Assembly: GCA_043741435.1 (NCBI GenBank)
Contig: JAYUBF010000332.1
Coordinates: 22,279 to 86,278 of the forward strand
Direction: 5' to 3'
Length of the DNA stretch: 64,000 nucleotides
DNA from: Myxococcales bacterium
GTDB taxonomy: Bacteria > Myxococcota_A > Polyangia > Palsa-1104
Shown: piece after piece, positions 17,012 through 48,670 of the stretch
How the letters are laid out: each line of letters begins with the position of its first letter
How positions within the stretch are numbered: position 1 is the first letter of the stretch
Translations under genes and position numbers: made by a program
Notes under the pieces: model-generated
What the model was told of the DNA's origin: nothing
Database searches by the model: none
Seen by the model: only the letters and a program-made list of their open reading frames with translations

Positions 17012-17029
17012 AGGACTGCTCATACCCAC

Positions 17030-18049: not shown

Positions 18050-18105
18050 TTTCACACCCAAGCGATGCGATTGCATCTAGCTCGCCGTCGTCTTACGTTC
18101 GCATC

Positions 18106-20493
<2,388 letters not shown>

Positions 20494-22231: not shown

Positions 22232-22419
22232 CCATACCCCGCTTCCTTGACGAGCGCCAGGCAGCGGCGGATACTTACCAGCTGATATCGCAGCTAAAAA
22301 GGCGATAAAACTTCGATGAAACTCCGACCGAGCGGCGGTCTGCGGACGAACAGAACGTCACCGATTCCGCCCGGTTGCCTCGTTGTTGTCGATGTCACAC
22401 TGGGGAGCGGTCGTCGAAC

Positions 22420-28677: not shown

Positions 28678-29390
28678 TCGGTTCTCCCCGCGAGGGCACC
28701 TTCGCGCTGGTCACGCAGCGCATCGGGTAAATCGGCGCCGATGGTTTGGCAGCCGACCAGCCGAGCACCAGTGGCTTCTGCTCCGGTGAGGGTAGCGCCC
28801 GAAAGATCGCAGCGCACGAACAACGCGCCGGCGAGGTCGGCGCGGTACAGATTGGCTCCGGACAGGTTGCAATCGATGAGCACGGCTCCGCTCAGCTTGG
28901 CGCGTGTCAGCTCGACGGCGGTGTTCGGCCGTGGGTCGGAGAAGCGGCAGCGGATCAGCGTGGCCCCGACGAGCCTGATGCCATAGAGCTGCGTCTCCAC
29001 GCAGCCGACATCGACCCATCGCGCGCCCGAGGCATCGACGTTGGCCAGCGTGCCGCGCAGAAAGGAGATGCGCTCCATGTGTGCTTCGACGAGCGACGCC
29101 TCGGTGAGGTCGGTGTCCTCGAAGCGCGCGTCCACGAGCACCGCCTCTTCGAAGCGGGCCTGCCGCAGGTCTACGCGCAGGAAGCTGGTGCGCCCGAGGT
29201 CGGCACGCGCGAAGTGGGACCCGGACAGGGCCATGCGCTCGAAGCGCGTGTCGTCGAGCACGGCAGGGGCCATGCGAAGCCCGGCGCAGTCGAAGCCCTG
29301 CACCGCTCGACCGCGAAGACCGCCTTCCTCGAGCAGGATCCGGACCTGCTCGCGACTCTCGATCACCGTGGCCGGCGGAACGGCGGTCAT
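28674..29390 (-). CDS. pentapeptide-repeat protein
   Basis: Long run of A(D/N)LxG/A(N/D)LSG pentapeptide units (ANLYRADLAGALFVRCDLSGATLTGAEATGARLVG). Confidence 0.75.
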   Translation of the reverse strand: MTAVPPATVIESREQVRILLEEGGLRGRAVQGFDCAGLRMAPAVLDDTRFERMALSGSHFARADLGRTSFLRVDLRQARFEEAVLVDARFEDTDLTEASLVEAHMERISFLRGTLANVDASGARWVDVGCVETQLYGIRLVGATLIRCRFSDPRPNTAVELTRAKLSGAVLIDCNLSGANLYRADLAGALFVRCDLSGATLTGAEATGARLVGCQTIGADLPDALRDQREGALAGRTE

Positions 29391-29408: not shown

Positions 29409-30041
29409 TCACCTGTCGTCGAACCCGAGGAGGTCCGCGTCGAGGCGACGGGCGTCGGCCACTTTCTCGAGGACCCGAAGCAAGATCTTCTCTCGGCGCT
29501 TTTCCGGATCGGCTGCCTTGGGTGCGTCGCCACCTTGGTCGCCCGCGAGCGACTTCGCTTCCGCATGCTCGGCTTCGCGCTCGTGTGCGGCGCCTTGACC
29601 ACCCTGCTCGAGCGCGAAGTTCATACCGCTCTGCGCTTGCTTGACGTGGGTGAGCTCGTGAGCGAGGAGCGCTCGACCTTCGCGCGTCTTGAGGTTCGTG
29701 CGAGGCGTGTCGCGCAACAGCACGAGGCCGGTACTTCCGACGGTGACAGCGTCGGCGCGATGACGACGGGTCACGCGCTCGGCGAAAGAGCCGCGGATGA
29801 TTCGGACGTCGCCGAAGTTGCCGCCAAGCTGCTTCTCCATGCGTTGGCGCGTGTCGGCATCGAGCTTCTCCGAATGGCCAGCACCGGACGCGGTGATGTG
29901 GCCCAGGCGTGACGCGTCGTAGCGGCGCGCCACGTCAGTGGCCAACGATTCGAGCTGGGCCTCTTCCCGCGCGGCGAGGCGAGTGCGCTCGTCGGCACTG
30001 AGGTTGAGATCGTCGAGAGACTTCGGATCGTCAGTCGCCAT
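29409..30041 (-). CDS. DUF4157-family protein (putative Zn-metallopeptidase-like; HExxH-like HELTHVKQ)
   Basis: Central motif ALLAHELTHVKQAQSG, matching my recollection of the DUF4157 signature (HEL.HV.Q). Start at the ATG at 30039-30041; the ORF track starts at an upstream TTG. Confidence 0.6.
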   Translation of the reverse strand: MATDDPKSLDDLNLSADERTRLAAREEAQLESLATDVARRYDASRLGHITASGAGHSEKLDADTRQRMEKQLGGNFGDVRIIRGSFAERVTRRHRADAVTVGSTGLVLLRDTPRTNLKTREGRALLAHELTHVKQAQSGMNFALEQGGQGAAHEREAEHAEAKSLAGDQGGDAPKAADPEKRREKILLRVLEKVADARRLDADLLGFDDR

Positions 30042-30137
30042 GTGTTGCAGGCACCTCGACAAAAAGCATAGCCCGGGTCCTGGCTTTCGAAAAGCACGTG
30101 GTCGATTGGTCTCCCAGGTGAACGACTACTCGGAGAC

Positions 30138-30545
30138 TTACTTGTCGAGCTCCTGGGTCATCATGTCCCAGCCCGTATACGACTGGCCGTCATGGGTTGC
30201 GGTGCCGACGCCCGCCTTGAAGGTGAAGGTGGTGGCGGTGCCGCGGACGATCTGCAGCGTCTTCATCTGACACACGGCCTTCTTCGAGGCGGCGTCATTA
30301 CAGTAAGCGGCCGGGCCAGAGGCGACGCTCTCGGCGACGTGTTTTACCTGGTAGAGATCGTCGTTGTTCTTGGTGGTGCTCTCGGTCACCGTGATCTTGA
30401 GCGCACATCCGCACGCGGCCTTGAACTTGGTCTCGGCATCTTTCACGGCCGGCTCCACGTCGCTCTTCATGTACTCCCGCTCGGCCTTACCAGCCAATGC
30501 GGTGATGGAAAGAAACAACGATGCGGTGACGAACAAGCGCTTCAT
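30138..30545 (-). CDS. small secreted protein (signal peptide, 4 Cys)
   Basis: Signal peptide MKRLFVTASLFLSITALAG. Local GC is clearly below the window average. Confidence 0.5.
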   Translation of the reverse strand: MKRLFVTASLFLSITALAGKAEREYMKSDVEPAVKDAETKFKAACGCALKITVTESTTKNNDDLYQVKHVAESVASGPAAYCNDAASKKAVCQMKTLQIVRGTATTFTFKAGVGTATHDGQSYTGWDMMTQELDK

Positions 30546-31009
30546 GGATGCTCCTTGGTATCGGGGTGGATGGCTTTGACGATATCGTCGACTCGAAATT
30601 TATCGGAGGCGGTTTCAGAGTAGGTGAGCTCGAACTCGGTCGACGACTTCGGCTGGAAGAACGTCCAGCGGTTGTCGCGGGCGGCCAGCAGGACCGTTCT
30701 ATACGGCTTGCTGCCGCGCTTGTGATCGAGATAGGCGTTCTTCGTCCCGTGCCCGAGGTCTTCGTACGAGTAACGCAGGGTTTTGCCTTCGAGCTCCCCA
30801 CCGAGATTCTTCAAGTAGACGAGAATCTCTTTGCCCTCGTTGATCTCGAGCATGACGACGACCTGGCCTTCAGGCCCTTTGAACGCTTTGAGCGGCCCCG
30901 AAGGCGTGACCTTGGCACCGAAGGTGGTGGTGATCCGATCGTCTGCCCGTGACTGTAGCGCGGGCGCCACACACAAGACGACCAAGGTCACGAACAGCAG
31001 CGAACGCAT
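30542..31009 (-). CDS. small secreted protein
   Basis: Signal peptide MRSLLFVTLVVLCVAPALQSRA. The ATG overlaps the TGA stop of the upstream gene (TGATG), so the two genes appear translationally coupled. The annotated ORF extends to a TTG at 31063. Confidence 0.5.
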   Translation of the reverse strand: MRSLLFVTLVVLCVAPALQSRADDRITTTFGAKVTPSGPLKAFKGPEGQVVVMLEINEGKEILVYLKNLGGELEGKTLRYSYEDLGHGTKNAYLDHKRGSKPYRTVLLAARDNRWTFFQPKSSTEFELTYSETASDKFRVDDIVKAIHPDTKEHP

Positions 31010-31614
31010 CAACGCCCCTTCCCGCACGATTTTACGACGTTCTCTTCCATCAACACCTCGCAAGCATTTTTACTCAGGTAGGCGTCGGGTCTATCTTTCT
31101 CTTCGAGGAAGTCAGCGCGGAATTCTTTGTCCTTCAGACATTGCTTGACGACGTTCTTCGCTTTCGCGTAGTTCGACGAAGGGTTCGTGTTCTTGGGATG
31201 CGACAGCGTCTTGGTAAGGACCTCGTAGGCGGCGAGCTCGTTGCAGCCGCTCAGCGCGTGACCGACGAGCACTGCGACCAAGGCGACCGAGTTTTCCGGC
31301 GCGCTGAGCCGCTTGACCGAGCCGATGAAGTCGAGGTCGGTGGCCTTGCTCTTCAGCGGCTCGAGCACGGCCACAGCCCTTTCGATGCAGCGCATCTGAA
31401 GCTCTACCTGTCCGAGGAGCCGGGTCTGATCACCGGTTTCGGTCTTGGTGCTCTCCACCAGGTGATCCATTTGCAGGCACTTCTCGAACCCCTCCAGGGT
31501 TTTGAAGGCAAACAAGTCGGCCCGAGCGATCGCAGGCGACAAAAGGACCGTCACGAAGGCGAGCGCTGTGGGCCCTACGAAACGCGTCCGGAAGCTTGGC
31601 ACAGTCATCTCCAT
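31009..31614 (-). CDS. secreted protein (signal peptide, 6 Cys)
   Basis: Signal peptide ...ALAFVTVLLSPAIARA. Lower-GC region. Confidence 0.5.
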   Translation of the reverse strand: MEMTVPSFRTRFVGPTALAFVTVLLSPAIARADLFAFKTLEGFEKCLQMDHLVESTKTETGDQTRLLGQVELQMRCIERAVAVLEPLKSKATDLDFIGSVKRLSAPENSVALVAVLVGHALSGCNELAAYEVLTKTLSHPKNTNPSSNYAKAKNVVKQCLKDKEFRADFLEEKDRPDAYLSKNACEVLMEENVVKSCGKGR

Positions 31615-31805
31615 GTCTCTCGATGGGCGAGGTGATCGAAGCTAGCTGGCGATCATATCTTAGTCTCCGTGACATTTCACTCAGCGGCGGAGACGGTTGA
31701 GCGGTGGCAATTTCATTCGCCGCTGCAGCCGACGTCCGCGACCAAGCATCTCAAGACGTTGCGTTGTTCTAACGTGGCCCGCTTCGTGCTCGCCACGGAT
31801 GCTCG

Positions 31806-32309
31806 ATGCGAATCGCGGTTGTGCTGGTGCTTGGGTTGAGGATGGTGGGCGCGGCCAATGCGGGTCCCGCCGATGTATTGCCGATGCGGGCCCGCGCGCT
31901 GCTCACGCAACGTCCGGATCGGGACGGGCCGAATTGTCTCAACGCGGTCGAGCTGTACCATGGGCTCGCCCGGGCCCAACGCTGGACCGCTTGGCGTGTG
32001 CTGGACCGCAAGCTCCGCACGGCGAATCGGTTCCGCGAGATGCGCGCCAACGAACTATCACAGCTCGGCGACGTGATCCTGTACCGCCACGGACCGCTCG
32101 ACTTGATCGAGCATGGCGCAATCTTCGTCGACTCTCTTCACGTGTGGGAAAAGGCAAACGCCGACGCGACGAGCACCTGGCAGTTCACGTCGCACGAAGC
32201 TTCCGCGGCGCCTTATGGCTACACCATCGTGCAACGCTGGCGCAGGCTCGACGCGCGCCGCCAAAGGCCTGACCTCGACGGCAAACAGCTGCTACCGACC
32301 GGGCCGTAG
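31806..32309 (+). CDS. secreted hypothetical protein
   Basis: Signal peptide MRIAVVLVLGLRMVGAANA. It is the only plus-strand ORF in this block. Confidence 0.4.
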   Translation: MRIAVVLVLGLRMVGAANAGPADVLPMRARALLTQRPDRDGPNCLNAVELYHGLARAQRWTAWRVLDRKLRTANRFREMRANELSQLGDVILYRHGPLDLIEHGAIFVDSLHVWEKANADATSTWQFTSHEASAAPYGYTIVQRWRRLDARRQRPDLDGKQLLPTGP

Positions 32310-32358
32310 CTCGGCTTTAGTTCGCCAACGAATTTGAGTGATCGCGACGGCGGACGCG

Positions 32359-32568
32359 TTACCGCCCGGTTTTCTGCGTGTTGCCGATGTCCGTGTTGTT
32401 CTCGTAGTACTCGGGTAGGAGCTCGCGGGCCTGGACCTTGTTGCCGAGGGCTTCCTCGAGGAACTTGGTGTCGTCGACGCAGGTGGTGCCATCGCCGCAC
32501 TTCACGCGCACGGAGACGTTGCCGTCGGGGCCGATGGTGATCTCGAGCTCTTTCTTCTTGGCCGACAT
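32359..32568 (-). CDS. DUF2997-family small protein
   Basis: 69 aa: MSAKKKELEITIGPDGNVSVRVKCGDGTTCVDDTKFLEEALG. This matches the DUF2997 pattern (E I T I . P D G . V . V . V . G . . G . . C . . . T . . L E . . L G). Confidence 0.6.
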   Translation of the reverse strand: MSAKKKELEITIGPDGNVSVRVKCGDGTTCVDDTKFLEEALGNKVQARELLPEYYENNTDIGNTQKTGR

Positions 32569-32580
32569 GGTCTGTTCCTC

Positions 32581-32976
32581 CTAACCCCACTTCGAGACGT
32601 TGAGCTTGACCGTGCCGTCCTTCTGTACCGCGTTCTCATCGATGGTGTAGCCGGCGTCTTCCACCGCGGCCACCACCTTCTGATACGCGTATTTCGAATT
32701 GATCTCCTTCGCGATCTCCTGCTCCGTCGCTCCGCGGGTGGTCTCTATTCCCCACCAATCGGCGACGAGCTCGTAGCCGCCGTTCTCGGCTTTCACGACG
32801 GCGACGTCGTACTTGCCCATGTCGATGGCGATCTCGGCCTGCATCGTCGCGCCCTTCCAGCCGCGAACCGTGACGCCGGCTTCCTCGTGCTTGTACTTCC
32901 AGCCGAGCGCATCGAGCGCCTTTTTGAGGCACACGAGGTCGGTTATCTGCGTTTGGACTTTGGTGAAGTGCGACAT
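32581..32976 (-). CDS. DUF1257 (Ycf35-like) family protein
   Basis: 131 aa beginning MSHFTKVQTQITDLVCLKKALDALGW, the hallmark DUF1257 N-terminus. It lies 4 bp downstream of the AAA gene. Confidence 0.6.
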   Translation of the reverse strand: MSHFTKVQTQITDLVCLKKALDALGWKYKHEEAGVTVRGWKGATMQAEIAIDMGKYDVAVVKAENGGYELVADWWGIETTRGATEQEIAKEINSKYAYQKVVAAVEDAGYTIDENAVQKDGTVKLNVSKWG

Positions 32977-32979
32977 GTT

Positions 32980-34524
32980 CTAGACCTCGAGCTTTCGTTC
33001 CGGCGCAGCGAAGCGATCACCCTTGGGCTTCGCCTCCGTCGAGAACGACGCGCTGCGCGCGCGGGTCTTGGCCCACTCGCGCATGGTGTCGATACCTTCC
33101 TTCATCGTTACGGCGAGCGGTACGATCTCGCGCGCTGCCGCGAGCAACCCCTCGGGCGTGACGTCGCGCTCCGCATCGAACGCGTCGTACAGCGCCGAGA
33201 TGACGGCCTGCTCGATCTCGGCGCCCGAGAACTCCGGCATGGCTTCGACGACCTTGGCGATGTCGAGCGTCTCCGGATCACGCTTCTTCTTGCGCAAGTG
33301 GATGTCGAGGATGCTCTTGCGCTCGTCGCGCGTCGGTAGATCGACGAAGAAGATCTCGTCGAAGCGACCTTTGCGCAGGAGCTCGGGCGGCAGCGCACGA
33401 ACGTCGTTCGCGGTGGCGATTACGAACACGGGTGCCGTCTTCTCCTGCATCCACGTGATGAACGTACCGAACACGCGCGACGTGGTGCCGCCGTCGGACA
33501 TGTTCGAGCTCCCGGTGCCGGAGAAACCCTTCTCGATCTCGTCGAGCCAGAGGACCGCCGGCGCGATGGCCTCGGCGGTCTTCAGCGCCTTGCGGATATT
33601 CTCCTCTGAAGCACCGACCAGGCCGCCCATGATTTTGCCCACGTCGAGGCGCAGGAGCGGCATCTGCCACGCAGCCCCGACGGCCTTCGCGGTGAGCGAC
33701 TTGCCGCAGCCGGGCACGCCGATGAGGAGGATCCCCTTCGGCAACGGGAGGCCGAAGTCGCGGGCCTTCTGCGTGAAGGCGCCGCGCCGCTTCTGCAGCC
33801 AGGTCTTCAGCGTCTCGAGCCCACCGATCTCGTCGAGCGACTCGGCGGTCTCGTAGTACTCGAGGATGCCGCTCTTGCGGATGATGTGCTTCTTCTCCTC
33901 CAGCACCGTTCCGATGTCGAAGGTCTTGCAGCGCACGATCGACTTCGCGAAGACGTTCTCCGCCTCGATGTACGTGAGACCCAGCGCGGCCTCGACGAGG
34001 CGCTCGCGGCCACTCGGGTCCGAGGCCATGCCAGGGTCCACGCCCGTAGGCAGCTCGCTGAGCAGCTTGCCGATGATGCCGTCGATCTCCGCGCGATCCG
34101 GCAGGTCCCAGTCGACGATCGCGACCTCCTTCTCGAGCTCCGGCGGCATCTTCAGCACGGGCGAGAGGAACAGCACGCTCTTCTGCGACTTCTTGAGATC
34201 GTGGCCGAGATCGCGCAGCTTGCGCACGACCTGAGCGTTGTCGAGGAACGCGTGGAAGTCGCGCAGGATGTAGAGGCCTTTGCCCTCGGCACCGGCGATG
34301 TGATCGAGCGCCTTCAGCGGATCTTTCACGTCGCCGCCACGATGCTCTCCGGCAAGCTGCACGAACCCGCGCGTGATCGACCACGCCACGAGCCGTCGCT
34401 CACGCCGGAGGGCGAAGTCGCGCAGCATGCGCTCCACCCGCTGCTCCTCCGACGACACGATATAGACGAGCGGATATCGCGCCTTGACCAGATCTTCGAC
34501 TTCCGTCGTGCTCGGTATCGCCAT
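32980..34524 (-). CDS. AAA+ ATPase with a single classical AAA domain and an N-terminal domain of about 230 aa (Ycf46-like architecture)
   Basis: Walker A GILLIGVPGCGKSLTAKAV, Walker B VLWLDEIEKGF, sensor-1 (VIATAN) and an Arg finger region (RKGRFDEIFFVDLP). Confidence 0.85.
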   Translation of the reverse strand: MAIPSTTEVEDLVKARYPLVYIVSSEEQRVERMLRDFALRRERRLVAWSITRGFVQLAGEHRGGDVKDPLKALDHIAGAEGKGLYILRDFHAFLDNAQVVRKLRDLGHDLKKSQKSVLFLSPVLKMPPELEKEVAIVDWDLPDRAEIDGIIGKLLSELPTGVDPGMASDPSGRERLVEAALGLTYIEAENVFAKSIVRCKTFDIGTVLEEKKHIIRKSGILEYYETAESLDEIGGLETLKTWLQKRRGAFTQKARDFGLPLPKGILLIGVPGCGKSLTAKAVGAAWQMPLLRLDVGKIMGGLVGASEENIRKALKTAEAIAPAVLWLDEIEKGFSGTGSSNMSDGGTTSRVFGTFITWMQEKTAPVFVIATANDVRALPPELLRKGRFDEIFFVDLPTRDERKSILDIHLRKKKRDPETLDIAKVVEAMPEFSGAEIEQAVISALYDAFDAERDVTPEGLLAAAREIVPLAVTMKEGIDTMREWAKTRARSASFSTEAKPKGDRFAAPERKLEV

Positions 34525-34561
34525 CTCGTTTTTCGTTCCTCTCGGTCGGAGCCGTTCCCGT

Positions 34562-36526
34562 TCAGACCACTTCGCGCAGCGTGCGCAGGACGTTCTTTGC
34601 TTCTTCGGTTCGCTCTACGGAAGCGGTGATCGCGTCCTTGAGCGAGCGGGTGGCTTCGCCGTCGGCGCCCAACTCTTCGACGAGTCGCTGCGCGAGCAGC
34701 ACGTGGGTGCGCAGCTCGGACAGGGCATCGTTCACGCCATCGTGCGCAGCTTCCGCCCGTCGCTGGATCTCGGCGATTCCAGCGGTCCCGTTGGTCGGCG
34801 CGCTGGCTTCGAGCTCGGCCCTGGCGATCGCGAGATCGGACCCCAGCAACGACAGCTCTTCTTCGAGCTCGCGGATCCGGATCTCGGCGGGCGCCGCGTG
34901 GCGTCGGCCATCTTCGCCGCCACCCCACGTGGACTCCTCGAGGTCGCCGCTGATGGGTCCCGTCGGGAGATCACTGCCGGTGGCGGCTTCGAGCAGATCA
35001 CCCGACAGCGTGACCTGCTCGCCGCGCTGACCGGTCGGCTTCGCCGCATCGGAGCGCTTGCGCGCGAGGTCGGCGTCCTTGCGCGCTTCGATGGCTTCTT
35101 GGCTGGCCTGCATCGCGCGCTGGTTCGCTTCGTCGAGCTCGCGACGCAGCTGCGCGATCTCGCCCATCAGGCGACCGGACGTGTCCTCGAGCATGCGTCG
35201 AGAATCTTCCGAAGCTTGACGCTGCAGCTCGGCGCGTTGCAGTGCTTCTTCGGCGCGTTCACGGGCGGAGATGGCGCGCTGCTTCTCCTCGAGCGCGTGC
35301 GTTCGCTCGACGTCGAGGTTGGCCACCTTCTGCTCCGCCAACGTGCGCGCCGCATCGGCTCGCTCGGCGCGCTCGAGCAACCGATCGCGCTCCGCCTCGA
35401 GGGTCTTCTGCGCGACGCGCGCTTGTCGCAGATCGCTCGCCAGCTGCAGCGCCTCTTCCGCGGTGCCACCGGTGCCGTCTGCCACTTTGCGCTGCAGACG
35501 TCGGTGCTCTTCGTCGAGCCCCTCGAGCTGGTTGCGCATCGCGACGAGTTGTTGCTTGGCATCGTCACGCTCGGTGCGCGTGATGACGAGCTCGCGCAGC
35601 GTGCGTTCTTTCTCTTGTCGCAGCTCTTGCGCCGATGATTCGAGCGCGATGAGGCCCACGCGACGCTCTTCCAACAGGCGCTCTTGCTCGGAGATGACGG
35701 CGCGCAGCCCGTCGAGCTCACCCGCGCGATTGTTGAGCTCGCGCCAGCCCGCGTCCTTGGTGCGCTCGAGCTCGACCAAGCGACCACGCGCCTCGTCGAG
35801 CGTGTGCTTGGTCCGCTGCACGTCCTCGAGAGAGCGCTCGAGCTGGCGATCACGTGCTTGCAGATCACCCGACGCCTTGTCGTGGCGATCACGCAGCTCG
35901 ATATGTTCCTTGCGGAGGCTGTCGATGTCCGTGCGGAGCTGCTCCGACACCCGCAGCGTGGCGTTGAGCTCCTCGTCGGTGCTCTGACGGATGCGCGACA
36001 GCTCGCTGAACTTGTCGCGTTGGATCGCGACCTCCGCACGCAGGCGTTGCAGCTCCGCACTGTCCGTCTCGCTGCGCGAACGCAGCGCGTCGAGCTCGCG
36101 ACCGAGGTCGAAGAGCTGTTGCTCCTTCGCGGATCGGTCGGCGAGCACCGACTCGAGCTCGCGCCGCGCCAGGTCGAGCTCACCCGACTCCTCCATGAGG
36201 CCCGGGTCCACGGCGATGCGGCTCGACGGCTTGTCATCGATGATGACGAAGCGGACCTGAAGCGTGCCGCAGCGCACGATGTCCGCGTGGCGCAGCTGCT
36301 GCTTCTGCACGCGCTGATCGTTCACGAAGGTGCCGTTCGAGCTCCCCAGGTCTTCGACGAACCAAGCGCCGCTTTCGAGCCACAGCCGATAGTTGCGGCG
36401 CGATACCATCGCGTCATCGGTCCGGACCACGCACTCCTGCGCTCGTCCCACGAAGGAGCCTTCCGGCTGCACGTCCGCGGACGCGTCCCTGCCTTGCGCA
36501 TCGCGGTAGAGCAACCGACCCTTCAT
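34562..36526 (-). CDS. FHA-domain protein with a very long coiled-coil (SMC/myosin-tail-like) C-terminal region
   Basis: N-terminal FHA domain (FVGRAQECVVRTDDAMVSRRNYRLWLESGAWFVEDLGSSNGTFVND). About 500 aa of heptad-like sequence rich in E, R, L and A follows. Confidence 0.75.
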   Translation of the reverse strand: MKGRLLYRDAQGRDASADVQPEGSFVGRAQECVVRTDDAMVSRRNYRLWLESGAWFVEDLGSSNGTFVNDQRVQKQQLRHADIVRCGTLQVRFVIIDDKPSSRIAVDPGLMEESGELDLARRELESVLADRSAKEQQLFDLGRELDALRSRSETDSAELQRLRAEVAIQRDKFSELSRIRQSTDEELNATLRVSEQLRTDIDSLRKEHIELRDRHDKASGDLQARDRQLERSLEDVQRTKHTLDEARGRLVELERTKDAGWRELNNRAGELDGLRAVISEQERLLEERRVGLIALESSAQELRQEKERTLRELVITRTERDDAKQQLVAMRNQLEGLDEEHRRLQRKVADGTGGTAEEALQLASDLRQARVAQKTLEAERDRLLERAERADAARTLAEQKVANLDVERTHALEEKQRAISARERAEEALQRAELQRQASEDSRRMLEDTSGRLMGEIAQLRRELDEANQRAMQASQEAIEARKDADLARKRSDAAKPTGQRGEQVTLSGDLLEAATGSDLPTGPISGDLEESTWGGGEDGRRHAAPAEIRIRELEEELSLLGSDLAIARAELEASAPTNGTAGIAEIQRRAEAAHDGVNDALSELRTHVLLAQRLVEELGADGEATRSLKDAITASVERTEEAKNVLRTLREVV

Positions 36527-36593
36527 CCCAGGTCATCATGACACGACCCACGGCCAAATTCCCGCCAGTGCTGGCCTAAAGGTCGACTAGAGC

Positions 36594-37175
36594 TTAGCCC
36601 TTGAACAGTGCTTCGCTGGTGCCGATGCGGATGATGTCGCCCGCGACGAGCTTGCGGCGCGCGCTCTTTTCGCCGTTCACATAGACGCCGTTGGTGGAAC
36701 CGAGGTCGGCGAGCTCGTAGCCGCCATCGACCCGGCGAATGCCCGCGTGCTTGCGCGACACACCGGTGTCTTTGAGCAGCACCGAGTTGCCTTCGAAGCT
36801 GCCGATCGTGGTGACGTCCGCGTCGAGGAAGAAGTTTTGTCCGGCGAGGGGGCCGGTACGGAACTCGATCGCGGCCCGACCCGAGGAAACGGCGGCCGCC
36901 GGCGTCGCCACCCGTGCGCCGTTCGTCGCGGGTGCCGCGCTCGAGCGCGCGCTACCGCAGGCGGGACAGAGGCGCCAGCTGGCCTGCACCCCGCCACCGC
37001 ACGTCGGGCACGCGCCTCTCTGCGCGCGACGACGATTCGAGACCACGGCCATGCGTAGGATGAACAAGGCCATCACCACGACCGCGGCGACCACGGCGGC
37101 AAGAAACCATCGTGGCGGCGGCTCGGCCACCACGGCGACCTCGTCGGCCATCGAGAGGAGCAGCAAGGCGATCAC
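36594..37175 (-). CDS. membrane protein with a zinc-ribbon and a C-terminal FHA domain
   Basis: TM helix (AAVVAAVVVMALFIL), then a Cys4 ribbon (CPTCGGG...CPACG), then an FHA domain (ADLGSTNGVYVNGE). Confidence 0.7.
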   Translation of the reverse strand: MIALLLLSMADEVAVVAEPPPRWFLAAVVAAVVVMALFILRMAVVSNRRRAQRGACPTCGGGVQASWRLCPACGSARSSAAPATNGARVATPAAAVSSGRAAIEFRTGPLAGQNFFLDADVTTIGSFEGNSVLLKDTGVSRKHAGIRRVDGGYELADLGSTNGVYVNGEKSARRKLVAGDIIRIGTSEALFKG

Positions 37176-37181
37176 GGCGTG

Positions 37182-38612
37182 CTACTGCACCACCGACTTG
37201 AACTTGAACTCGCTCCGACCGAGAACGATGCGGTCGTTGTCGACGAGCTCGTGCTCGCGCACCTTCTTCTCGTTCACCACCATGCCGTTGGTGGATCCGA
37301 GATCGATCAACCGGAAGCGCTGACCGTCGCGCCTCACCTCGGCGTGGCGCGACGAGGCGAAGGAGTCGTCGATGACGACGTCGCAATCGGGCGCGGTGCC
37401 GATGATGGTGCGGCCGCCTTGGTTGAGCGAAAACGTCTTGTCGACGTTTCGGCCGCTGAGCACGACCAACCAACCGACGGCTTGCACCTTGCCACCCCCG
37501 GCCCCACCCATCGCCATCGTGCGCGACGGTGCGCCCGCGGGCTGTGGCGCCGGCGCTGCGAACTGCATGGGCTGTTCATCGCGCTCGCGGAAGATGAGCC
37601 ACACGATGAGCATCACCAGCAGCACCCCACCGCCGATGCAGAGCGCCCACAGCCACCAGCGACGCGCCTGCACCTTGGTGACGACGAGATGCGTCGCCGG
37701 CGGGACGGAACGAATGTAGTTATTGGACGAAGCGATGTGTCCCCCCGCCTCGGCCGAGATCTGGAACGTATGGAACTTGCCGTCGCCGCCCGCGATGCCG
37801 AGCTCGTACGTCGCGATGTATTGCTTGCGCAGCTCGTCGGCCACGTTCTGGAACTCCGTGGTGACCTCGTTGCTGCTCTTGCATGTGCGCTCGCCGCCGT
37901 TCGATTGCTTGGTGAGCTCGGTGAGGTTGCGCAGGCGGGCCGGCTCGAACGGTGCGTAGCCGATGGTGTCGATGACGATGCCGCCATCGACGGCGCGCAT
38001 CGCGACGGATTTGTAGGTCTTCCTCTCCATGTTGACGTCGATACCATCGGAGAAGAGCACGATGAGCTTGCGCTGATCTTTCGGCGCGGCGTTGAGCAGA
38101 TCGATGGAGGTTCGCAGCGCATCGAGCAGGTGGACCTCGACGAGCTCGGTGTCGGTCTGCAGCTGGTTGGCGGCGGCCTCTGCATCGGCGGGCGGACCCA
38201 GCTCGGCAAGGCGCTTCGTCTCGGCGGAGAAGCCGAGCAAGGCCATCTTGGACTTGGCTGGAAGTGCGTTCGCCAACATCTTCACGCCCTTCTTGATGTC
38301 GTCGGAGACCTCGAGCATGGCCTGTGACACCTGCACCACGACGACGAGGTTCACTGGCTCGTTCGAGGCATCGAAGACCTGTAGATCTCTCGCTGCACCC
38401 TGCTCCGCCGAATCGAGGATGAGCTTGAACTCCTCCTTCGCGCGCCCGGAGATCAAACGCCCATCACCGTCGGTGAGCGTGAGGTACGCCTTCATGGTGG
38501 GCGAGCGTGTCAGGTCGATGCGCTCGAGGCGCAGCTTGTCTGCCGCGAGCGCGGGTGCGCAAAGAGCCAGGGATGAAAGAACAACGGCGATGCACGCCGA
38601 GCGCAGGGTCAT
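37182..38612 (-). CDS. secreted/membrane vWA-domain protein with a TM helix and a C-terminal cytoplasmic FHA domain
   Basis: Signal peptide; a vWA-like domain whose MIDAS-like motif is partly degenerate (VVVQVSQAM...LFSDGIDV); a TM helix (WWLWALCIGGGVLLVMLIVWLIF); and an FHA domain (IDLGSTNGMVVNEKKV). Confidence 0.75.
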   Translation of the reverse strand: MTLRSACIAVVLSSLALCAPALAADKLRLERIDLTRSPTMKAYLTLTDGDGRLISGRAKEEFKLILDSAEQGAARDLQVFDASNEPVNLVVVVQVSQAMLEVSDDIKKGVKMLANALPAKSKMALLGFSAETKRLAELGPPADAEAAANQLQTDTELVEVHLLDALRTSIDLLNAAPKDQRKLIVLFSDGIDVNMERKTYKSVAMRAVDGGIVIDTIGYAPFEPARLRNLTELTKQSNGGERTCKSSNEVTTEFQNVADELRKQYIATYELGIAGGDGKFHTFQISAEAGGHIASSNNYIRSVPPATHLVVTKVQARRWWLWALCIGGGVLLVMLIVWLIFRERDEQPMQFAAPAPQPAGAPSRTMAMGGAGGGKVQAVGWLVVLSGRNVDKTFSLNQGGRTIIGTAPDCDVVIDDSFASSRHAEVRRDGQRFRLIDLGSTNGMVVNEKKVREHELVDNDRIVLGRSEFKFKSVVQ

Positions 38613-39427
38613 GTCGATTTGAATTTGAAGGACGTGCGTCCCAGTCGGAGCGTATCACCGTCGACCAGATCGGACTGGGTCACGCGCTTGTCATTGACGA
38701 AGGTTCCGTTCGTGGAGCCGAGGTCGCTGACGCGAAACACGCCGGCTTGCGCGCTGAACTCCGCATGACGGCCGCTGACCGACGAGTCGCTGACCAGCAC
38801 GTCGCAATCCGGCGCGGTCCCCACGACGGAGCGGGCCCGCAGCTCGAGCAGCTGCCCTCCTTGCGGACCGTCGAGCGGGATGATCCAGGCGACGAGGCGA
38901 GAGGCCGACGACCCACCGTGCGCGACGCCGCCACCACCGCTGTCGATGTCCATGGTGCGGGGCTTGTTACCGCCACCGCCGTAGTTGCTACCGCCGTGGC
39001 CGACATCGAGCGATTCGGTGCGGGGCGATGCACCGCCCGCTGGCTGGCCACCGTTGTCGACCTGGTTGCCGAAGCCGCAGTAGGGGCACAGCTCCCAACG
39101 CGCATCGAGCTTCTCGTTGCAGTTGGGACAGCGCTTCTTCTTCGAGAAGAGGCCCATCTTCTTGTTGTTCGCTCCTGGTTGAGGCGCCGTGCCGCCTCTG
39201 TTCTTCAGCTGGCCCGCTTGGTTCGCGAGCTGCTTCGCCTGATGCCCGTATTGCTGCATCTGCTGCTTGTTGTACTGGAGCTCGCTGCGAAGTTCGTTGG
39301 GCAGCTGACGTACGCGGTTGATGTTGCCGCGAATTTGTCCTTCGAAGTTGCGCACGCTCGATGTCTTGCCGCGCATGAAGTCCAGCGGCGCGCGCAAAGT
39401 GCGCAAGAGATCGTCGAAGAACGACAT
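38609..39427 (-). CDS. zinc-ribbon plus FHA domain protein with a Gly-rich linker
   Basis: Cys4 ribbon (CPNCNEKLDARWELCPYCG), then an FHA domain (GRHAEFSAQAGVFRVSDLGSTNGTFVNDKRV). The gene overlaps the next gene by 4 bp. Confidence 0.7.
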   Translation of the reverse strand: MSFFDDLLRTLRAPLDFMRGKTSSVRNFEGQIRGNINRVRQLPNELRSELQYNKQQMQQYGHQAKQLANQAGQLKNRGGTAPQPGANNKKMGLFSKKKRCPNCNEKLDARWELCPYCGFGNQVDNGGQPAGGASPRTESLDVGHGGSNYGGGGNKPRTMDIDSGGGGVAHGGSSASRLVAWIIPLDGPQGGQLLELRARSVVGTAPDCDVLVSDSSVSGRHAEFSAQAGVFRVSDLGSTNGTFVNDKRVTQSDLVDGDTLRLGRTSFKFKST

Positions 39428-39506
39428 CCGTCTGAAAGACTAGCACACCCCCCGCAGCCGTGTTCCGCAAGCCTGGTTGAAGTGTCGCTGCGGCAAATGC
39501 TTTCAA

Positions 39507-40787
39507 TTACTGCTTGAGCTGCACGACCTCTTGCAGCATCTGGTCAGCCGTCGAGACGGTCTTGGCGTTGGCGGAGAAGGCGCGCTGGTAGGCGATGAGC
39601 GTGACGAGCTCGTTGCCGATGTCCACGTTCGACTGCTCGAGCGAGCTGCCGACGATGCCACCGCGCGAGCCGGTCGCCGCGGCGTCAACCAGGGCCTGGC
39701 CCGAGACTTGGGTCTCCGAGAACAGCTGCGAGCCCGAGCGCTGCAGGCCCTTCTCGCTGGCGAACGTCGCGAGGGCGACGCGCACGATGGGCCGGCTCTG
39801 ACCGTTCGAGAACTGACCGGTGATGGTGCCGTCGCTGGAGACGTTCACGCTGGCAAGGTCGCCCGAGCCGTAGCCGTCCTGGTCGAGCTTCTTCACGGTG
39901 TTCGGCGCGGAGAACTGCGTCGAGCCGTTGAGCCCGGTGCCGCCCGCGGCGATATCGTCGCCGAAGCTGAAGGCGATGGCTTGGTTCGCCGTTGCACCCA
40001 CGAAGCTGGCGGACGAGGCGACGGTGGTCTGCGCGGTGAGCGCACCTGCGGTGTTGAAGGTGGCCGTGCCGTTCGCGATCTCGGTGGGCACGCCCGCGGT
40101 TCCACCGGCGAGCTCTCCACCGTCGACCATCGCGTGCCACTCCCAGGCGCCGGCGCCGTTGTCGCGGAAGAACACGTCGGCGCGGTGCGCGGTGCCGAGC
40201 GAGTCGTACACCGTGGCCGACGTCGAGTAGTTCGACGTGCCGCTCGGGTTCGCAGCGCTCCAAGCGGCCGGCGGTATCGACGAGGAGTCGAGGTTCACCG
40301 ACAGGTCGAGCTTGGTGGTGGGGTTCGGCGAGCTCTGGCCACCGATGACGAGGTCGCCCACGGCTTGCGACGGCTTGCCGGTCGCGTCGATGGTGTAGCC
40401 CTGCACCTTTAGGCCCTGGCCGTTGACGAGCGTGCCCTTGTTGTCGAGCTTGAACTGGCCGTCACGCGTGTAGTAGCTGCCGTCGACGCCGTTGTGGTTG
40501 CCCTTCACGACGAAGAAGCCGTTGCCCTGCACGGCCATGTCGAGCGGTTGGCCGGTGTTGGTGATGGTGCCCTGGCCGAACAGCGTGTCGGGGCCGGTCA
40601 TGCGCGAGCCTTGTCCGAGGTTCTGTCCGTTGCTCGCGGCGCCGCCGATCATGTCTTCGAACACTGCGCGGTTCTGTTTGAAGCCGACGGTGGACGCGTT
40701 GGCGATGTCGTCGCCGACGATTCCGATCGCGTCACCATGCGCAGCGAGACCGTTGGCACCCGTGTACAGCGAGCTGAAGATGGACAT
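39507..40787 (-). CDS. flgE: flagellar hook protein FlgE
   Basis: N-terminal Flg_bb_rod motif (IANASTVGFK), the central FlgE hook domain and the C-terminal Flg_bbr_C (VDIGNELVTLIAYQRAFSANAKTVST). Confidence 0.9.
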   Translation of the reverse strand: MSIFSSLYTGANGLAAHGDAIGIVGDDIANASTVGFKQNRAVFEDMIGGAASNGQNLGQGSRMTGPDTLFGQGTITNTGQPLDMAVQGNGFFVVKGNHNGVDGSYYTRDGQFKLDNKGTLVNGQGLKVQGYTIDATGKPSQAVGDLVIGGQSSPNPTTKLDLSVNLDSSSIPPAAWSAANPSGTSNYSTSATVYDSLGTAHRADVFFRDNGAGAWEWHAMVDGGELAGGTAGVPTEIANGTATFNTAGALTAQTTVASSASFVGATANQAIAFSFGDDIAAGGTGLNGSTQFSAPNTVKKLDQDGYGSGDLASVNVSSDGTITGQFSNGQSRPIVRVALATFASEKGLQRSGSQLFSETQVSGQALVDAAATGSRGGIVGSSLEQSNVDIGNELVTLIAYQRAFSANAKTVSTADQMLQEVVQLKQ

Positions 40788-40832
40788 TCGGTTTGCTCCT
40801 TCGCCTGTTGGCGTGGTGGACGAGTTGGGTGG

Positions 40833-41612
40833 TTACTTCTGGACGCTGATGATGTCGCCGGGACCCACGGGGGAGCCGCCGACCCGGAGTTGCGTGGAAC
40901 CCGAGCCGAAGTCGACCGAAGTGACGGTGCCGGTGATCTGGGCGTAGCCGTCGACGGTGCTGTTGCCCGAGCCAGTCGCGACCACCTTGACGCCGTAGTT
41001 GCCGGGCGCGAGCTGCCGCCCCTTGTCATCGAGGCCGCCCCAGTTGGTCTCGACGTCGCCGGCAGTGCGCGAGCCGAGATCGATGGTGCGAACGATGGCG
41101 CCGGAGGAGTCGGTGATCTGCACCTTCACGCTGTTCGCGTTCGTGGGCAGGTGCACCTGGAGATTCACCGGCGTGGCCGGCGCACCTTGCACGGTGAGGG
41201 TGCTGGTCTTCGCGACCGCCGCGTGACCCACGAGGCCGGCAAGCTGGATGCGCTGGTTCGCCGCTTGCGCGGAGGTCAACGACGCGAGCTGATCGTTGGT
41301 CTCGGTGCTCTGCTCGAGCGCGGAAAACTGCGCGAGCTGCGTGACGAACGCGGTCGGATCCTGCGGGCTCAGCGGATCTTGGTGCTGGAGCTGCGCCACC
41401 AGCAGCTTCAAGAACTGGTCCTTCGAGACCTTTGCGTTGCCGGTCGCGCTCGCGAGCTGGCTCGCGTTCGAGGTGGTCGACGTGGTGCCGGTCGTCGAGG
41501 TCGTGCTGCCAGTGCTCGTGGCGGTGGTCGCCGTGGAGCTCGCTGACGTGGACTTCGCGGTAACGCTGCTGGCGACGCCGGCGACGGTGGAGGCGATGCT
41601 TCCGATGCTCAT
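40833..41612 (-). CDS. flgD: flagellar hook capping/assembly protein FlgD
   Basis: FlgD signature QDPLSPQDPT...QLAQFSALEQ. The Ser/Thr-rich N-terminus is typical. Confidence 0.85.
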   Translation of the reverse strand: MSIGSIASTVAGVASSVTAKSTSASSTATTATSTGSTTSTTGTTSTTSNASQLASATGNAKVSKDQFLKLLVAQLQHQDPLSPQDPTAFVTQLAQFSALEQSTETNDQLASLTSAQAANQRIQLAGLVGHAAVAKTSTLTVQGAPATPVNLQVHLPTNANSVKVQITDSSGAIVRTIDLGSRTAGDVETNWGGLDDKGRQLAPGNYGVKVVATGSGNSTVDGYAQITGTVTSVDFGSGSTQLRVGGSPVGPGDIISVQK

Positions 41613-41620
41613 GTTCTCTC

Positions 41621-42781
41621 CTAGGCCATCACGACGACTCGTTGGGAGTCGCGCGGGGTGGACGATTCTTCGGACGAGGGCTTGGTGACGGCGTTGGACG
41701 AGCGACGCTCGCGAGGCTCGGTGGCTTCCTCGCGCGCGGGATTTCGCGCGTCTTGCTGCGACAGATCGAGACCGTGACGACCGAGCGCCTCGCGCAGCTC
41801 GTGCTGCCCGTTGCGCAGCGCTTCCGCCAAGGCATTGCCCGCCGGCGTGTTCTGCTCCACATCGACGGAGACGCGGTTCGCGTGCGTCGAGATGGTCATC
41901 ACCACGCGCTCGTCGCCAGAGCCGAGCACCAGGCGCGCACGGTGCCCTTCGATGGAGCCGCCGCCGACGTCGACGATCTTCTCGGCCAGGCCGTGCCAGT
42001 CGACGTCCTTCACTTCCTTGGCCGCCTCCACCGGCGCCGGTGCATCGGAGGCGAGCTGCTGCATCGGCGCTGCCAAGGTGCCCACCACGGGCTTCGTCGT
42101 ACGAGGGCCGTCGACCCGCGCGCCCGCCTCGTCGCTGTCGTTCGCCGGCGCCGACTTCGGCGGGAGCTGCTGTGCGATGAGGTCCATCAACAGATCGGCG
42201 TGCTCTGGGGCGCGCGTCGCGACCGTCGGCGCGGGCTCGGGTTGCTCTTGCTGCGGCGTCGCCACGGCACGCTTCGCCGAGTCGGCCGTCGAAGCGGCCG
42301 TCGAAGCACTCGTCGACACGTCGTGGCTCTCATCCCGATCGGCCGGCTGCATCGGGGAGAGCACCTGGTCGAAGACGCCGGGCTTGCCGAGGTCGGCCAG
42401 CGTGCTGAGGGTCGGGCCCGCGACCGCTCGCGCTTCGACGCTGCCCACGGCCGCAGCGCCGAGCTCCTCGACATGGGCGATCGCGCCATCGGTTTGGGTC
42501 CGCTCGGTGGCCGGCGCCGGATCCGTATCGGGCTCGACCGGCGGCAAGACCCGGACGGGCTCGGGCGCGGGCGTCGCACCTTCGGGAGATTTGCGATCGC
42601 TGGTCTTGGTCTTCTTGCCCATCGCGGTGCTCGACGCGGGCTTCCCAGCGGCGTCACGATCGTTCGTCCGACGCGAGCGGAACGCTTGCTCGAAGACGCT
42701 CGGCTCGCCTTCGTTGGCGATCGTCGCGCGAGCATCGGCGGTTGTCGCTGCGAGCGTGCGCTCGAGGCCATGGAGCTTCAT
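41621..42781 (-). CDS. fliK: flagellar hook-length control protein FliK
   Basis: Pro/Ala-rich central region and a C-terminal Flg_hook domain (RARLVLGSGDERVVMTISTHANRVSVDVEQ). Position between flgD and fliJ. Confidence 0.75.
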   Translation of the reverse strand: MKLHGLERTLAATTADARATIANEGEPSVFEQAFRSRRTNDRDAAGKPASSTAMGKKTKTSDRKSPEGATPAPEPVRVLPPVEPDTDPAPATERTQTDGAIAHVEELGAAAVGSVEARAVAGPTLSTLADLGKPGVFDQVLSPMQPADRDESHDVSTSASTAASTADSAKRAVATPQQEQPEPAPTVATRAPEHADLLMDLIAQQLPPKSAPANDSDEAGARVDGPRTTKPVVGTLAAPMQQLASDAPAPVEAAKEVKDVDWHGLAEKIVDVGGGSIEGHRARLVLGSGDERVVMTISTHANRVSVDVEQNTPAGNALAEALRNGQHELREALGRHGLDLSQQDARNPAREEATEPRERRSSNAVTKPSSEESSTPRDSQRVVVMA

Positions 42782-43224
42782 CGGACTTCCTTCCGGTGCA
42801 TCACGCTGGCCGAGCGCTCGTCGGAGTCGGTCTGTTCGGCCTTGTCGCGCTCTGCGTCGCGACCGCGTCGCGCCGTCTCGAGCTGCTTCTCCGAGCCGCG
42901 CAGATCACGCTCGCGACGATTCATGTGCTGGCGAGCCTTCTCCACGACGGCGACGTGCTTGCTCAGGACCGAGCGTGCGGCCACCGCCGCGCGATCCGCG
43001 TCGTGGCGTTGATCTTGAAAGAGCTCGAGCGCGCGGATGTTCGACGCTCTCGCGAGGTGCCCTGCCGCCTCGTCGATGAAGCGCTGGTGCTCGGCGCGCA
43101 GCTCGTCCGCGTGCTGCGCCGCTTCTTGGCGCTTCGCATCGGCCACGGCCATCTCACCGGCCGACAGGTCACGCAGGCGCTTCCGGGCAGTGACGATGCG
43201 AGAGAGCATCTTGACCGGGCTCAC
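42778..43224 (-). CDS. fliJ: flagellar export protein FliJ
   Basis: 148 aa coiled-coil protein. It lies immediately downstream of fliI with a 4 bp overlap. Confidence 0.7.
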   Translation of the reverse strand: MSPVKMLSRIVTARKRLRDLSAGEMAVADAKRQEAAQHADELRAEHQRFIDEAAGHLARASNIRALELFQDQRHDADRAAVAARSVLSKHVAVVEKARQHMNRRERDLRGSEKQLETARRGRDAERDKAEQTDSDERSASVMHRKEVR

Positions 43225-47864: not shown

Positions 47865-47884
47865 GGTCGTTTAGCTCCGGCTCA

Positions 47885-48187: not shown

Positions 48188-48190
48188 CCG

Positions 48191-48628: not shown

Positions 48629-48670
48629 GGTGAGTCTCCTCTTGGTTTCGCTGAGTGAAAGCCGTTAGCC

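Follow-up and report, generated by a model that had tools for sequence, protein, structure and literature searches.

A cluster of seven genes encoding four FHA-domain proteins, an AAA+ ATPase, a DUF1257 protein and a DUF2997 protein has been studied in a 64,000-nucleotide stretch of contig JAYUBF010000332.1 from a Myxococcales bacterium, a metagenome-assembled genome of the Polyangia (Myxococcota). The whole stretch is referred to below as the window. All seven open reading frames (ORFs) described in the original prediction for this DNA were recovered on the minus strand with the same boundaries. The first gene in the direction of transcription, FHA1 (38609–39427, 272 aa), encodes a predicted cytoplasmic protein in which a helical N-terminus is followed by a CxxC..CxxC zinc ribbon, a Gly-rich linker and an FHA domain. 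It is followed by vWA-FHA (37182–38612, 476 aa), which combines a signal peptide, a periplasmic vWA-like domain lacking the metal-ion-dependent adhesion site (MIDAS), one transmembrane (TM) segment and a cytoplasmic FHA domain, and by FHA3 (36594–37175, 193 aa), featuring an N-terminal TM anchor, a zinc ribbon and an FHA domain. In the fourth protein, FHAcc (34562–36526, 654 aa), an N-terminal FHA domain precedes a coiled coil of about 550 aa. The remaining genes encode the AAA+ ATPase (32980–34524, 514 aa), composed of a degenerate AAA-like N-terminal half and one active AAA module of the classical clade, the DUF1257 (Ycf35-family) protein (32581–32976, 131 aa) and the DUF2997 protein (32359–32568, 69 aa). 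The genes are tightly packed, with intergenic gaps of −4, 6, 67, 37, 3 and 12 bp from FHA1 to DUF2997. The DUF2997 gene is the last of the unit in the window, because the next gene converges on it. The third-position GC-content of the seven ORFs is 0.81–0.93, a typical coding value for a 66% GC genome, and an independent gene caller produced identical calls for all seven in the Logan assembly of the same DNA (L001).

The domain assignments were confirmed for all seven proteins by Pfam profile searches. The FHA domains were matched with E-values of 6.5e-19 (FHA1), 4.5e-19 (vWA-FHA), 5.4e-16 (FHA3) and 2.6e-15 (FHAcc). The Zn_ribbon_3 match in FHA1 scored 28.7 bits against a cutoff of 27; the zinc ribbon of FHA3 remained under the Pfam cutoff, yet its CPTC...CPAC pattern is visible in the sequence. 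The vWA-like domain was recognised at the level of the fold by VWA_2 (30.3 bits, cutoff 27). Hydropathy analysis placed an N-terminal hydrophobic segment, interpreted as a signal peptide, at residues 6–24 and a TM segment at residues 323–341 of vWA-FHA, and a TM segment at residues 27–45 of FHA3. The coiled coil of FHAcc shows similarity to the SMC/Rad50 coiled coils of NCBIfam. The last three genes are consecutive members of the AAA (PF00004, 6.1e-30), DUF1257 (PF06868, 4.9e-21) and DUF2997 (PF11211, 3.3e-14) families.

Relatives of the locus were collected in three surveys: a scan with the ATPase in which one genome per species was used and the best 80 genome matches, all at least 47% identical, were considered; a metagenome scan with a Baseplate_J alignment; and phmmer searches with proteins of the window and of its relatives. 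Scans of the metagenome and viral_contigs collections with the 634-aa CIS_tube-fusion protein of locus L087 found no relatives, and the Baseplate_J alignment was then used. The closest named relatives of the window ATPase belong to metagenome-assembled genomes of Polyangia, Myxococcales and Haliangiales. The seven genes were found to be a conserved co-directional unit, as had been predicted; their order is repeated in over 30 loci of various species and metagenomes, and a chance juxtaposition is ruled out by this recurrence. FHA genes do recur beside AAA, DUF1257 and DUF2997 genes in Myxococcota, and also in loci of spirochaetes.

The upstream neighbours of the unit in these relatives are the genes of a baseplate operon. 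Every locus looked up with an ATPase 64–87% identical to that of the window contains the block of FHA genes, AAA, DUF1257 and DUF2997, and the block lies directly downstream of Baseplate_J, PASTA+Tail_P2_I and then x525, the working name given here to a protein of 510–550 aa without a Pfam family. The gene before FHA1 is x525 in 31 of the 32 loci where this position is visible (32 of 33 counting L169). The x525–FHA1 gap varies in the relatives from 17 to 385 bp, and values as small as 17–19 bp imply that both genes belong to one operon. Further upstream, Pfam identified GPW_gp25, the Phage_GPD hub and the CIS_tube fusion protein, and longer metagenome loci add genes for the spike/PAAR, a gp19-type tube and the sheath. 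The full order in metagenomes is sheath, tube, CIS_tube, GPD, spike/PAAR, gp25, Baseplate_J, Tail_P2_I and x525, and then FHA1, vWA-FHA, FHA3, FHAcc, AAA, DUF1257 and DUF2997. The presence of baseplate, hub, tube and sheath genes means that the upstream neighbour of the unit in relatives is a phage-tail-like contractile injection system (CIS). The structural families are of the Afp type, and none of the Tss families (TssA-M) of type VI secretion was found in the window or in the relatives. In several split loci, namely L086 (identical to Haliangium), L117, L122, L125, L128 and L129, the baseplate operon has no upstream sheath or tube gene and begins after housekeeping genes. Throughout the CIS family, even in loci resembling those of classical extracellular contractile injection systems (eCIS), x525 closes the conserved part of the baseplate operon (examples: L006 3388–4935 and L087 10001–11548). 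Among its 754 homologues is one in the cultivable Haliangium ochraceum, which also encodes the operon of gp25, Baseplate_J, Tail_P2_I and x525.

Downstream of DUF2997 the relatives share the gene order of the window, which is eCIS_core, a pentapeptide-repeat gene, a gene without a family, a TPR gene, PP2C on the opposite strand, another gene without a family, a Hanks-type kinase and two paralogous TM proteins. The first gene of this series in the window, a DUF4157/eCIS_core metallopeptidase-like gene (29409–30041, minus strand), lies 2.3 kb downstream of the unit. PF13699 was assigned on the identical gene of L001, and the HExxH motif is intact, reading HELTHVKQ in the translation. DUF4157 is a highly eCIS-specific core domain according to a survey of 1,249 genomes (PMC8213781). 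The original prediction had missed both this CIS marker and the fact that elsewhere, in 32 of 33 loci, the unit continues the baseplate operon of a CIS.

The other minus-strand genes of this block encode the pentapeptide-repeat protein (28674–29390, Pfam Pentapeptide 5.2e-28), an unfamilied protein of 155 aa (28210–28677) and a small protein with faint TPR matches (27777–28205). Orthologues of all three follow in the same order in L002, L003, L004, L006, L013, L028 and L169, and a pentapeptide protein is also located after DUF2997 in the spirochaete locus L020. The PP2C phosphatase (27037–27774, plus strand, PP2C_2 2.2e-15) is syntenic, on the opposite strand, in L002, L003, L004, L006, L013 and L169. 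The Hanks-type Ser/Thr kinase (24248–25513, plus strand, Pkinase 1.5e-46) is syntenic in L003, L004, L013, L028 and L169, and its hydropathy profile includes a TM-like segment at residues 387–405 of 421, which resembles a C-terminal tail anchor. Two conserved genes without Pfam matches flank the kinase on the PP2C side (26123–27004, minus; 25526–26119, plus), and on its other flank lie two paralogous proteins with N-terminal TM segments and no Pfam family (23407–24246, plus, 279 aa; 22375–23376, plus, 333 aa). With phmmer, orthologues of the kinase-flanking genes were detected at the corresponding places in L003, L004, L013 and L028, while L169 has genes of comparable size there; the paralogous TM pair is kept beside the kinase in all five loci. 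The kinase and the phosphatase of the original prediction were both verified by Pfam, and the proposal that they belong with the FHA genes is borne out by the synteny of the block from eCIS_core to the kinase in L003, L004, L013 and L169, and partly in L002, L006 and L028.

In the window, a variable 2.4-kb insertion (29937–32367, both strands) separates DUF2997 from eCIS_core. Its GC-content is 0.596, versus about 0.66 for the genome, and its four ORFs (30138–30545, 30542–31009 and 31009–31614 on the minus strand, and 31806–32309 on the plus strand) gave no significant match in Pfam or PADLOC. The insertion is absent from L006 and L169, where eCIS_core directly follows DUF2997, and the same slot is occupied in L002 and L013 by an Afp15-like double AAA ATPase and unknown genes. 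The site looks like a variable cargo or effector slot. Beyond the kinase block, at a distance of about 2–8 kb, the genes for ClpB, DnaJ and Lon are located (14387–20493); clpB (14387–17011) is a housekeeping-type gene beside the other two. A Lon gene is also found 6 kb after DUF2997 in L011 (18269–20692), and this region is probably a conserved chromosomal flank of the island or, less probably, a sign of a link to proteostasis.

The surveys show that the seven genes consist of two units: three FHA proteins that track the baseplate, and a core of FHAcc, AAA, DUF1257 and DUF2997 that is capable of standing alone. FHA genes follow x525 in 11 of 12 loci with a Baseplate_J protein at least 50% identical, and in the twelfth, L108, they are found after a 4.8-kb insertion. 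The proportion is 10 of 14 at 40–49% identity and 2 of 12 below 40%. The whole series through AAA was found at Baseplate_J identities of at least 49% wherever the sequence is long enough (L089, L094, L099, L101, L107, L109 and L128). At 40–47% identity, two FHA proteins follow x525, and neither a coiled-coil FHA protein nor AAA is encoded in the next 4–5 kb. When Baseplate_J is only about 30% identical, the loci resemble classical eCIS clusters: they have two sheath genes, an Afp15-like ATPase and DUF4157, and FHA genes are usually missing. The two such loci that do have FHA genes carry PP2C or a kinase. The FHAcc gene is always directly upstream of the AAA gene, including in Myxococcota loci without CIS. 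In these CIS-free Myxococcota the ATPase is about 58% identical to that of the window, and the core sits among housekeeping genes.

In spirochaetes the components are arranged differently and are mixed with those of the machine. The Treponemataceae chromosome L023 encodes in one run DUF1257, Tail_P2_I, x525, a Zn-ribbon FHA protein, a vWA-TM protein, sheath, gp19 tube, CIS_tube, Phage_GPD, a radical-SAM-like protein, a Ycf46-like AAA ATPase, a spike (Phage_base_V+PAAR) and a 1016-aa protein. In the termite-gut spirochaete locus L020, the order is DUF1257, Tail_P2_I, two unfamilied genes, x525, FHA, vWA, AAA, DUF2997 and pentapeptide. The interleaving of the ATPase and DUF1257 genes with structural genes in spirochaetes is the strongest argument that their products work with the machine.

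The residues of the FHA phosphate-binding pocket were read from hidden Markov model alignments of 24–32 orthologues per protein. In characterised FHA domains, the Arg of the Gly-Arg motif touches the phosphate. FHAcc is the only one of the four proteins that keeps this canonical Arg (24 of 24 orthologues). The position is occupied by Thr or Lys in 28 of 32 FHA1 orthologues, with Arg in none of the 32, by Thr in all 29 orthologues of vWA-FHA and by Ser in all 27 of FHA3. The Ser and Asn of the pocket are kept in all four proteins and the His in three, this residue being replaced by Asn in 13 of 24 FHAcc orthologues. The FHA proteins of spirochaetes, where the Zn-ribbon plus FHA type also occurs in Treponema loci, have Gly or Thr at the Arg position. 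Thus, of the four phospho-threonine readers originally predicted, the FHA domains are real, but the number of readers was overstated, since the canonical Arg is present in FHAcc only. The MIDAS motif DxSxS is likewise absent from the vWA-like domain in all 25 orthologues, the window reading Q-V-S-Q-A at this place.

The membrane-anchored FHA proteins have a counterpart in SctD/YscD of type III secretion, which are also membrane-anchored proteins with a cytoplasmic FHA domain; these proteins of the module score 45–62 bits on Pfam Yop-YscD_cpl and have no canonical phosphate-binding Arg. Because of the missing Arg and the Yop-YscD_cpl scores, the FHA domains of FHA1, vWA-FHA and FHA3 may be phosphorylation-independent scaffolds, as in type III secretion ring proteins. 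The likeness has limits: the SctD model TIGR02500 gives 15 bits against a cutoff of 86, a periplasmic ring-building domain is absent from the module, and there are no type III genes beyond the unrelated flagellar operon.

In the ATPase, the residues of Walker A, Walker B, sensor-1 and the arginine finger are invariant in 46 homologues. Its best solved relatives are the D2 domains of Cdc48/p97, and the models it matches are of the Cdc48/FtsH/PAN type, not of the ClpB type. The earlier description of a single-domain ATPase needs refinement: the one active AAA module is preceded by an alpha/beta N-terminal half, which aligns with tandem AAA proteins; in the AlphaFold model, residues 11–210 form a confident (pLDDT >90) alpha/beta domain with a helical bundle. 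The DUF2997 protein has one invariant cysteine (C30 in the window) in a G-x-S/T-C motif, as seen in aligned sequences from Myxococcota, Spirochaetes and Elusimicrobia. The adjacent AAA/DUF1257/DUF2997 trio recurs in loci of the same three phyla, and AAA with DUF1257 was also found in a bin labelled archaeal.

The same three families form the Ycf46/Ycf35/DUF2997 set of cyanobacteria and plastids. Cyanobacteria have a cluster of DUF2997, ycf35 and fed7 (PMC4284462), as well as a ycf46 operon of three genes that is switched on by severe oxidative stress and by (p)ppGpp (bioRxiv 10.1101/2025.07.21.665879). The trio of the window differs in being preceded by an FHA-coiled-coil gene and, in relatives, in being embedded in a CIS locus, and the likeness between the two sets is one of protein families. 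There is no Ycf46-specific model in Pfam or NCBIfam, the JGI name of the ATPase (SpoVK/Ycf46/Vps4 family) is a broad label, and no cyanobacterium was among the best 80 genome matches to the ATPase. A radical-SAM-like gene (Fer4_12 + Radical_SAM, about 198 aa) stands directly before the Ycf46-like AAA gene in Treponema (L021, L023 and L024) and likewise precedes it in Elusimicrobia (L033, L047 and L050). An iron-sulfur neighbour of these families is thus recurrent, being radical-SAM-like in two phyla and the ferredoxin fed7 in cyanobacteria. In the Elusimicrobia locus L031 (7269–9335), a Hanks-type kinase gene is directly upstream of the Ycf46-like ATPase gene, with DUF1257 about 1 kb downstream, which hints at phosphorylation control of this ATPase family beyond Myxococcota.

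The seven genes, together with the eCIS_core, pentapeptide, TPR, PP2C and kinase genes, can on balance be regarded as an accessory module of one CIS clade present in Polyangia and related Myxococcota and in Treponemataceae. The association of the module with CIS is robust, and its role is most likely the membrane anchoring, regulation and ATP-driven remodelling of the CIS; the mechanism by which this would proceed is proposed by analogy. The structural genes of the CIS of this genome probably lie elsewhere in it, since split CIS loci are common in the family.

The following sequence of events can be envisaged. vWA-FHA and FHA3 would place their FHA domains on the cytoplasmic face of the inner membrane and, together with the soluble FHA1, would build a platform at the inner membrane on which the baseplate is docked or positioned; the three proteins, which complete the baseplate operon, are the best candidates for such a platform. 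The tail-anchored kinase and PP2C would set the phosphorylation state of a component of the platform or baseplate. The mark would be read by the sole canonical FHA domain, at the tip of the long coiled coil of FHAcc, and FHAcc would recruit the putative AAA+ unfoldase, as a hexamer and along with DUF1257 and DUF2997 as its partners. The unfoldase may then remodel the machine by disassembling or recycling the sheath or baseplate, or may license assembly or cargo loading. Such a logic would parallel that of PpkA/PppA/Fha1 and ClpV in type VI secretion.

The type VI secretion pathway of threonine phosphorylation, comprising TagE/PpkA, TagG/PppA and TagH/Fha1, with the recycler ClpV (PMC13584744), is the closest analogue of the module. 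The statement of the original prediction that no characterised homologue could be named is therefore half right. In both cases, a contractile machine is encoded with a Hanks kinase, PP2C, one or more FHA proteins and an AAA+ unfoldase, and membrane-associated signalling proteins are located beside baseplate genes. The differences are numerous. The machine associated with the module is Afp/PVC-like (Baseplate_J, Tail_P2_I, DUF4157, Afp15-like ATPase) rather than composed of TssA-M. On three of the FHA proteins the TagH model TIGR03354 gives 34.6, 36.7 and 31.3 bits, its cutoff being 120.25, and FHAcc is not matched. The ATPase belongs with the Cdc48-D2-like classical AAA proteins, has a degenerate N-terminal half and is not of the ClpB/ClpV type. 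Of the four FHA proteins, three lack the canonical Arg, and type VI secretion has no counterpart of DUF1257 or DUF2997. The periplasmic vWA domain of PpkA is part of a kinase, whereas in the module the vWA-like domain is carried by an FHA protein. The proteins of the module and of type VI secretion are not orthologous, because the TagH and SctD models score far below their cutoffs and the ATPase is not ClpB-like.

Compared with Afp, PVC, MACs and AlgoCIS, the relatives carry the same set of genes for the sheath, gp19 tube, CIS_tube, GPD hub, spike/PAAR, gp25, Baseplate_J, Tail_P2_I and DUF4157, and some of them an Afp15-like double AAA ATPase. The window retains the DUF4157 gene of this set but differs in having no structural genes. 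The TM-anchored FHA proteins and the second ATPase point to a system that would act under regulation while anchored to the cell, and not to one released by lysis. The CIS surveys PMC8213781 and PMC12210884 contain no mention of Myxococcota, DUF1257, PP2C, Ser/Thr kinases or FHA domains. In the full-text literature, with subscription-only papers outside the scope, eCIS or contractile injection combined with FHA led only to type VI or unrelated work, Ycf46 paired with sheath led to nothing relevant, and DUF1257 with DUF2997 appeared in cyanobacterial and plastid contexts only. The association of an FHA/AAA/DUF module with CIS is apparently undescribed.

Non-type-VI CIS are being engineered as protein-delivery devices, and their regulation and membrane attachment are poorly understood. 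A CIS clade with its own FHA platform, kinase/phosphatase pair and second AAA+ protein would show how nature controls an Afp/PVC-like system post-translationally. In addition, the locus provides the orphan Ycf46/Ycf35/DUF2997 trio with its first concrete structural neighbours, namely the baseplate, the sheath and an FHA-coiled-coil adaptor, which makes its function testable. A bolder version of the accessory-module reading, which at present we consider rather unlikely, is that the trio, which is conserved from plastids and cyanobacteria to Myxococcota, is a dedicated disassembly machine for large polymers, targeted in Myxococcota through the FHA-tipped coiled-coil adaptor in a phospho-threonine-dependent manner, and serves as the ClpV-equivalent recycler and checkpoint of a membrane-anchored, eCIS-derived system in Polyangia and Treponemataceae. 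If this were the case, the system would be a weapon that came to resemble type VI secretion by convergence, and it would have a threonine-phosphorylation switch of its own.

Several observations weigh against an accessory role in a CIS. Sheath, tube, hub/spike and baseplate genes are all absent from the 64-kb window, the first 22 kb of which encode an NtrC-type regulator, a GGDEF protein, MgtE, RecQ, a methyltransferase, ClpB, DnaJ and Lon, and the last part of which (39.5–64 kb) is filled with flagellar genes. None of the best 120 x525 homologues lies on a contig with the length of that of the window (120,971 bp). The FHAcc/AAA/DUF1257/DUF2997 core occurs without CIS within 10 kb in L016, L018, L019, L025, L035 and L067, and the AAA gene, whether or not it is accompanied by DUF1257 and DUF2997, is common in phyla in which no CIS gene was observed beside it. 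The phosphate-binding Arg is missing from three of the four FHA domains, and these may not read phospho-threonine. Neither kinase nor PP2C was found in the Treponema loci or within 9 kb downstream in the L007–L015 subclade. The Afp15-like double AAA ATPase of L002 and L013 blurs the role of a second ATPase, and the proposed mechanism is built on analogy.

As a rival explanation, the core may be an autonomous stress or proteostasis module, a self-contained Ycf46-type remodelling unit regulated by the kinase and PP2C, with substrates of its own and working in this genome without a CIS. The proximity to CIS in Polyangia and Treponema would then be hitch-hiking or secondary recruitment. Besides the six loci without CIS and the window without structural genes, this explanation is consistent with the neighbours of the core in L025, which are the housekeeping genes for TatC, signal peptidase, a CDF transporter, SpeE, DksA, MutL and DnaB. 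Branching in a neighbour-joining tree of the ATPase agrees with taxonomy: among Myxococcota the CIS-linked clade is sister to the CIS-free one, followed by Spirochaetes and, at a greater distance, by other phyla. ATPases of about 50% identity are found in many phyla, often with DUF1257/DUF2997 and without FHA genes, and the stress induction of the cyanobacterial ycf46 operon and the kinase directly upstream of AAA in Elusimicrobia point in the same direction. However, autonomy of the core leaves three things unexplained: the other three FHA proteins, which track x525 even without the AAA core; the position of AAA and DUF1257 between CIS structural genes in Treponemataceae; and the DUF4157/eCIS_core gene retained in the window. 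It is considered a tenable but clearly less probable explanation than the accessory module.

It is quite unlikely that the unit is an orphaned remnant, in which the CIS has been lost from the lineage and the accessory genes are functionless and heading to decay. The lack of any structural CIS gene in the window would agree with such a loss, as would the breakpoint exactly at the operon junction and the foreign-looking insertion between the module and eCIS_core. However, the seven ORFs and about 12 downstream syntenic genes are full length, with no frameshift, and neither the catalytic residues of the ATPase nor the HExxH motif of eCIS_core has been lost. The ratio of nonsynonymous to synonymous substitutions (dN/dS) relative to L006, the nearest reference genome, is 0.13 for AAA, 0.10 for DUF1257, 0.30 for DUF2997 and 0.26–0.54 for the FHA proteins. 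The intact ORFs, the purifying selection and the persistence of eCIS_core speak for a CIS encoded in another part of the genome, an arrangement in line with the frequency of split loci in the family.

The upstream neighbour of the unit in the window is flgE (39507–40787, minus strand, matching Pfam FlgE_D2, Flg_bbr_C and related families). It is the last gene of a flagellar operon with flgB, flgC, fliE-K, flgD and flgE (39507–49087, minus strand) and is not a member of the module. The flgE stop at 39507 precedes the FHA1 start by an intergenic region of 79 bp (39428–39506). A simple scan revealed no intrinsic-terminator-like site on the minus strand of this gap and no sigma-70-like site; sigma-54 and sigma-28 promoters were looked for by eye only, and the lack of a convincing one carries no weight. 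The gap is also a synteny breakpoint: blastn homology to L006, whose ATPase is 87% identical, ends at position 39430, at the FHA1 start codon. A chimeric assembly at this point is unlikely, as the junction is present in the independent Logan assembly of the run. A rearrangement has put the end of the flagellar operon at the x525–FHA1 junction, removing the baseplate genes from this position, and the adjacency to flgE is a lineage-specific rearrangement rather than a functional clue.

The possible link to flagellar function raised in the original prediction, by which the module would be transcribed together with flgE and act on the flagellum as a motility-related membrane-to-cytoskeleton device under the control of phosphorylation, is highly improbable: the common strand, the 79-bp gap without a terminator-like hairpin, the lone FHIPEP gene after DUF2997 in L015 and the FHA domains known from type III secretion inner-membrane rings (the Yop-YscD_cpl matches) speak for it, but at 66% GC a missing simple terminator motif says little, flgE precedes FHA1 in this genome only (1 of 33 loci), sequence similarity to the nearest relative ends where FHA1 begins, and the module is present in relatives whose loci show no flagellar genes, with none in 168 related loci save the FHIPEP gene.

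A known anti-phage defence system was considered as a further candidate and rejected, since the PADLOC models matched none of nine other proteins and gave only generic AAA similarity of the ATPase to IetA and TRIP13.

The FHIPEP gene of the Polyangia locus L015 (12727–17415) encodes a FlhA-like protein of 575 aa and starts 390 bp after DUF2997. It is followed by a gene for an FHA-sigma54-activator, with no other flagellar gene nearby. In the window itself, the minus strand from 39507 to 64000 carries a near-complete flagellar set: flgBC, fliE-K, flgDE, fliS, fliD, fliC and flgLK, further flgNM, flgJIHA, flgGF and fliA, and then flhG, flhF and flhA, the series continuing in L005. Myxococcota are known for gliding rather than swimming, and this set belongs to a genome whose closest relatives are Polyangia.

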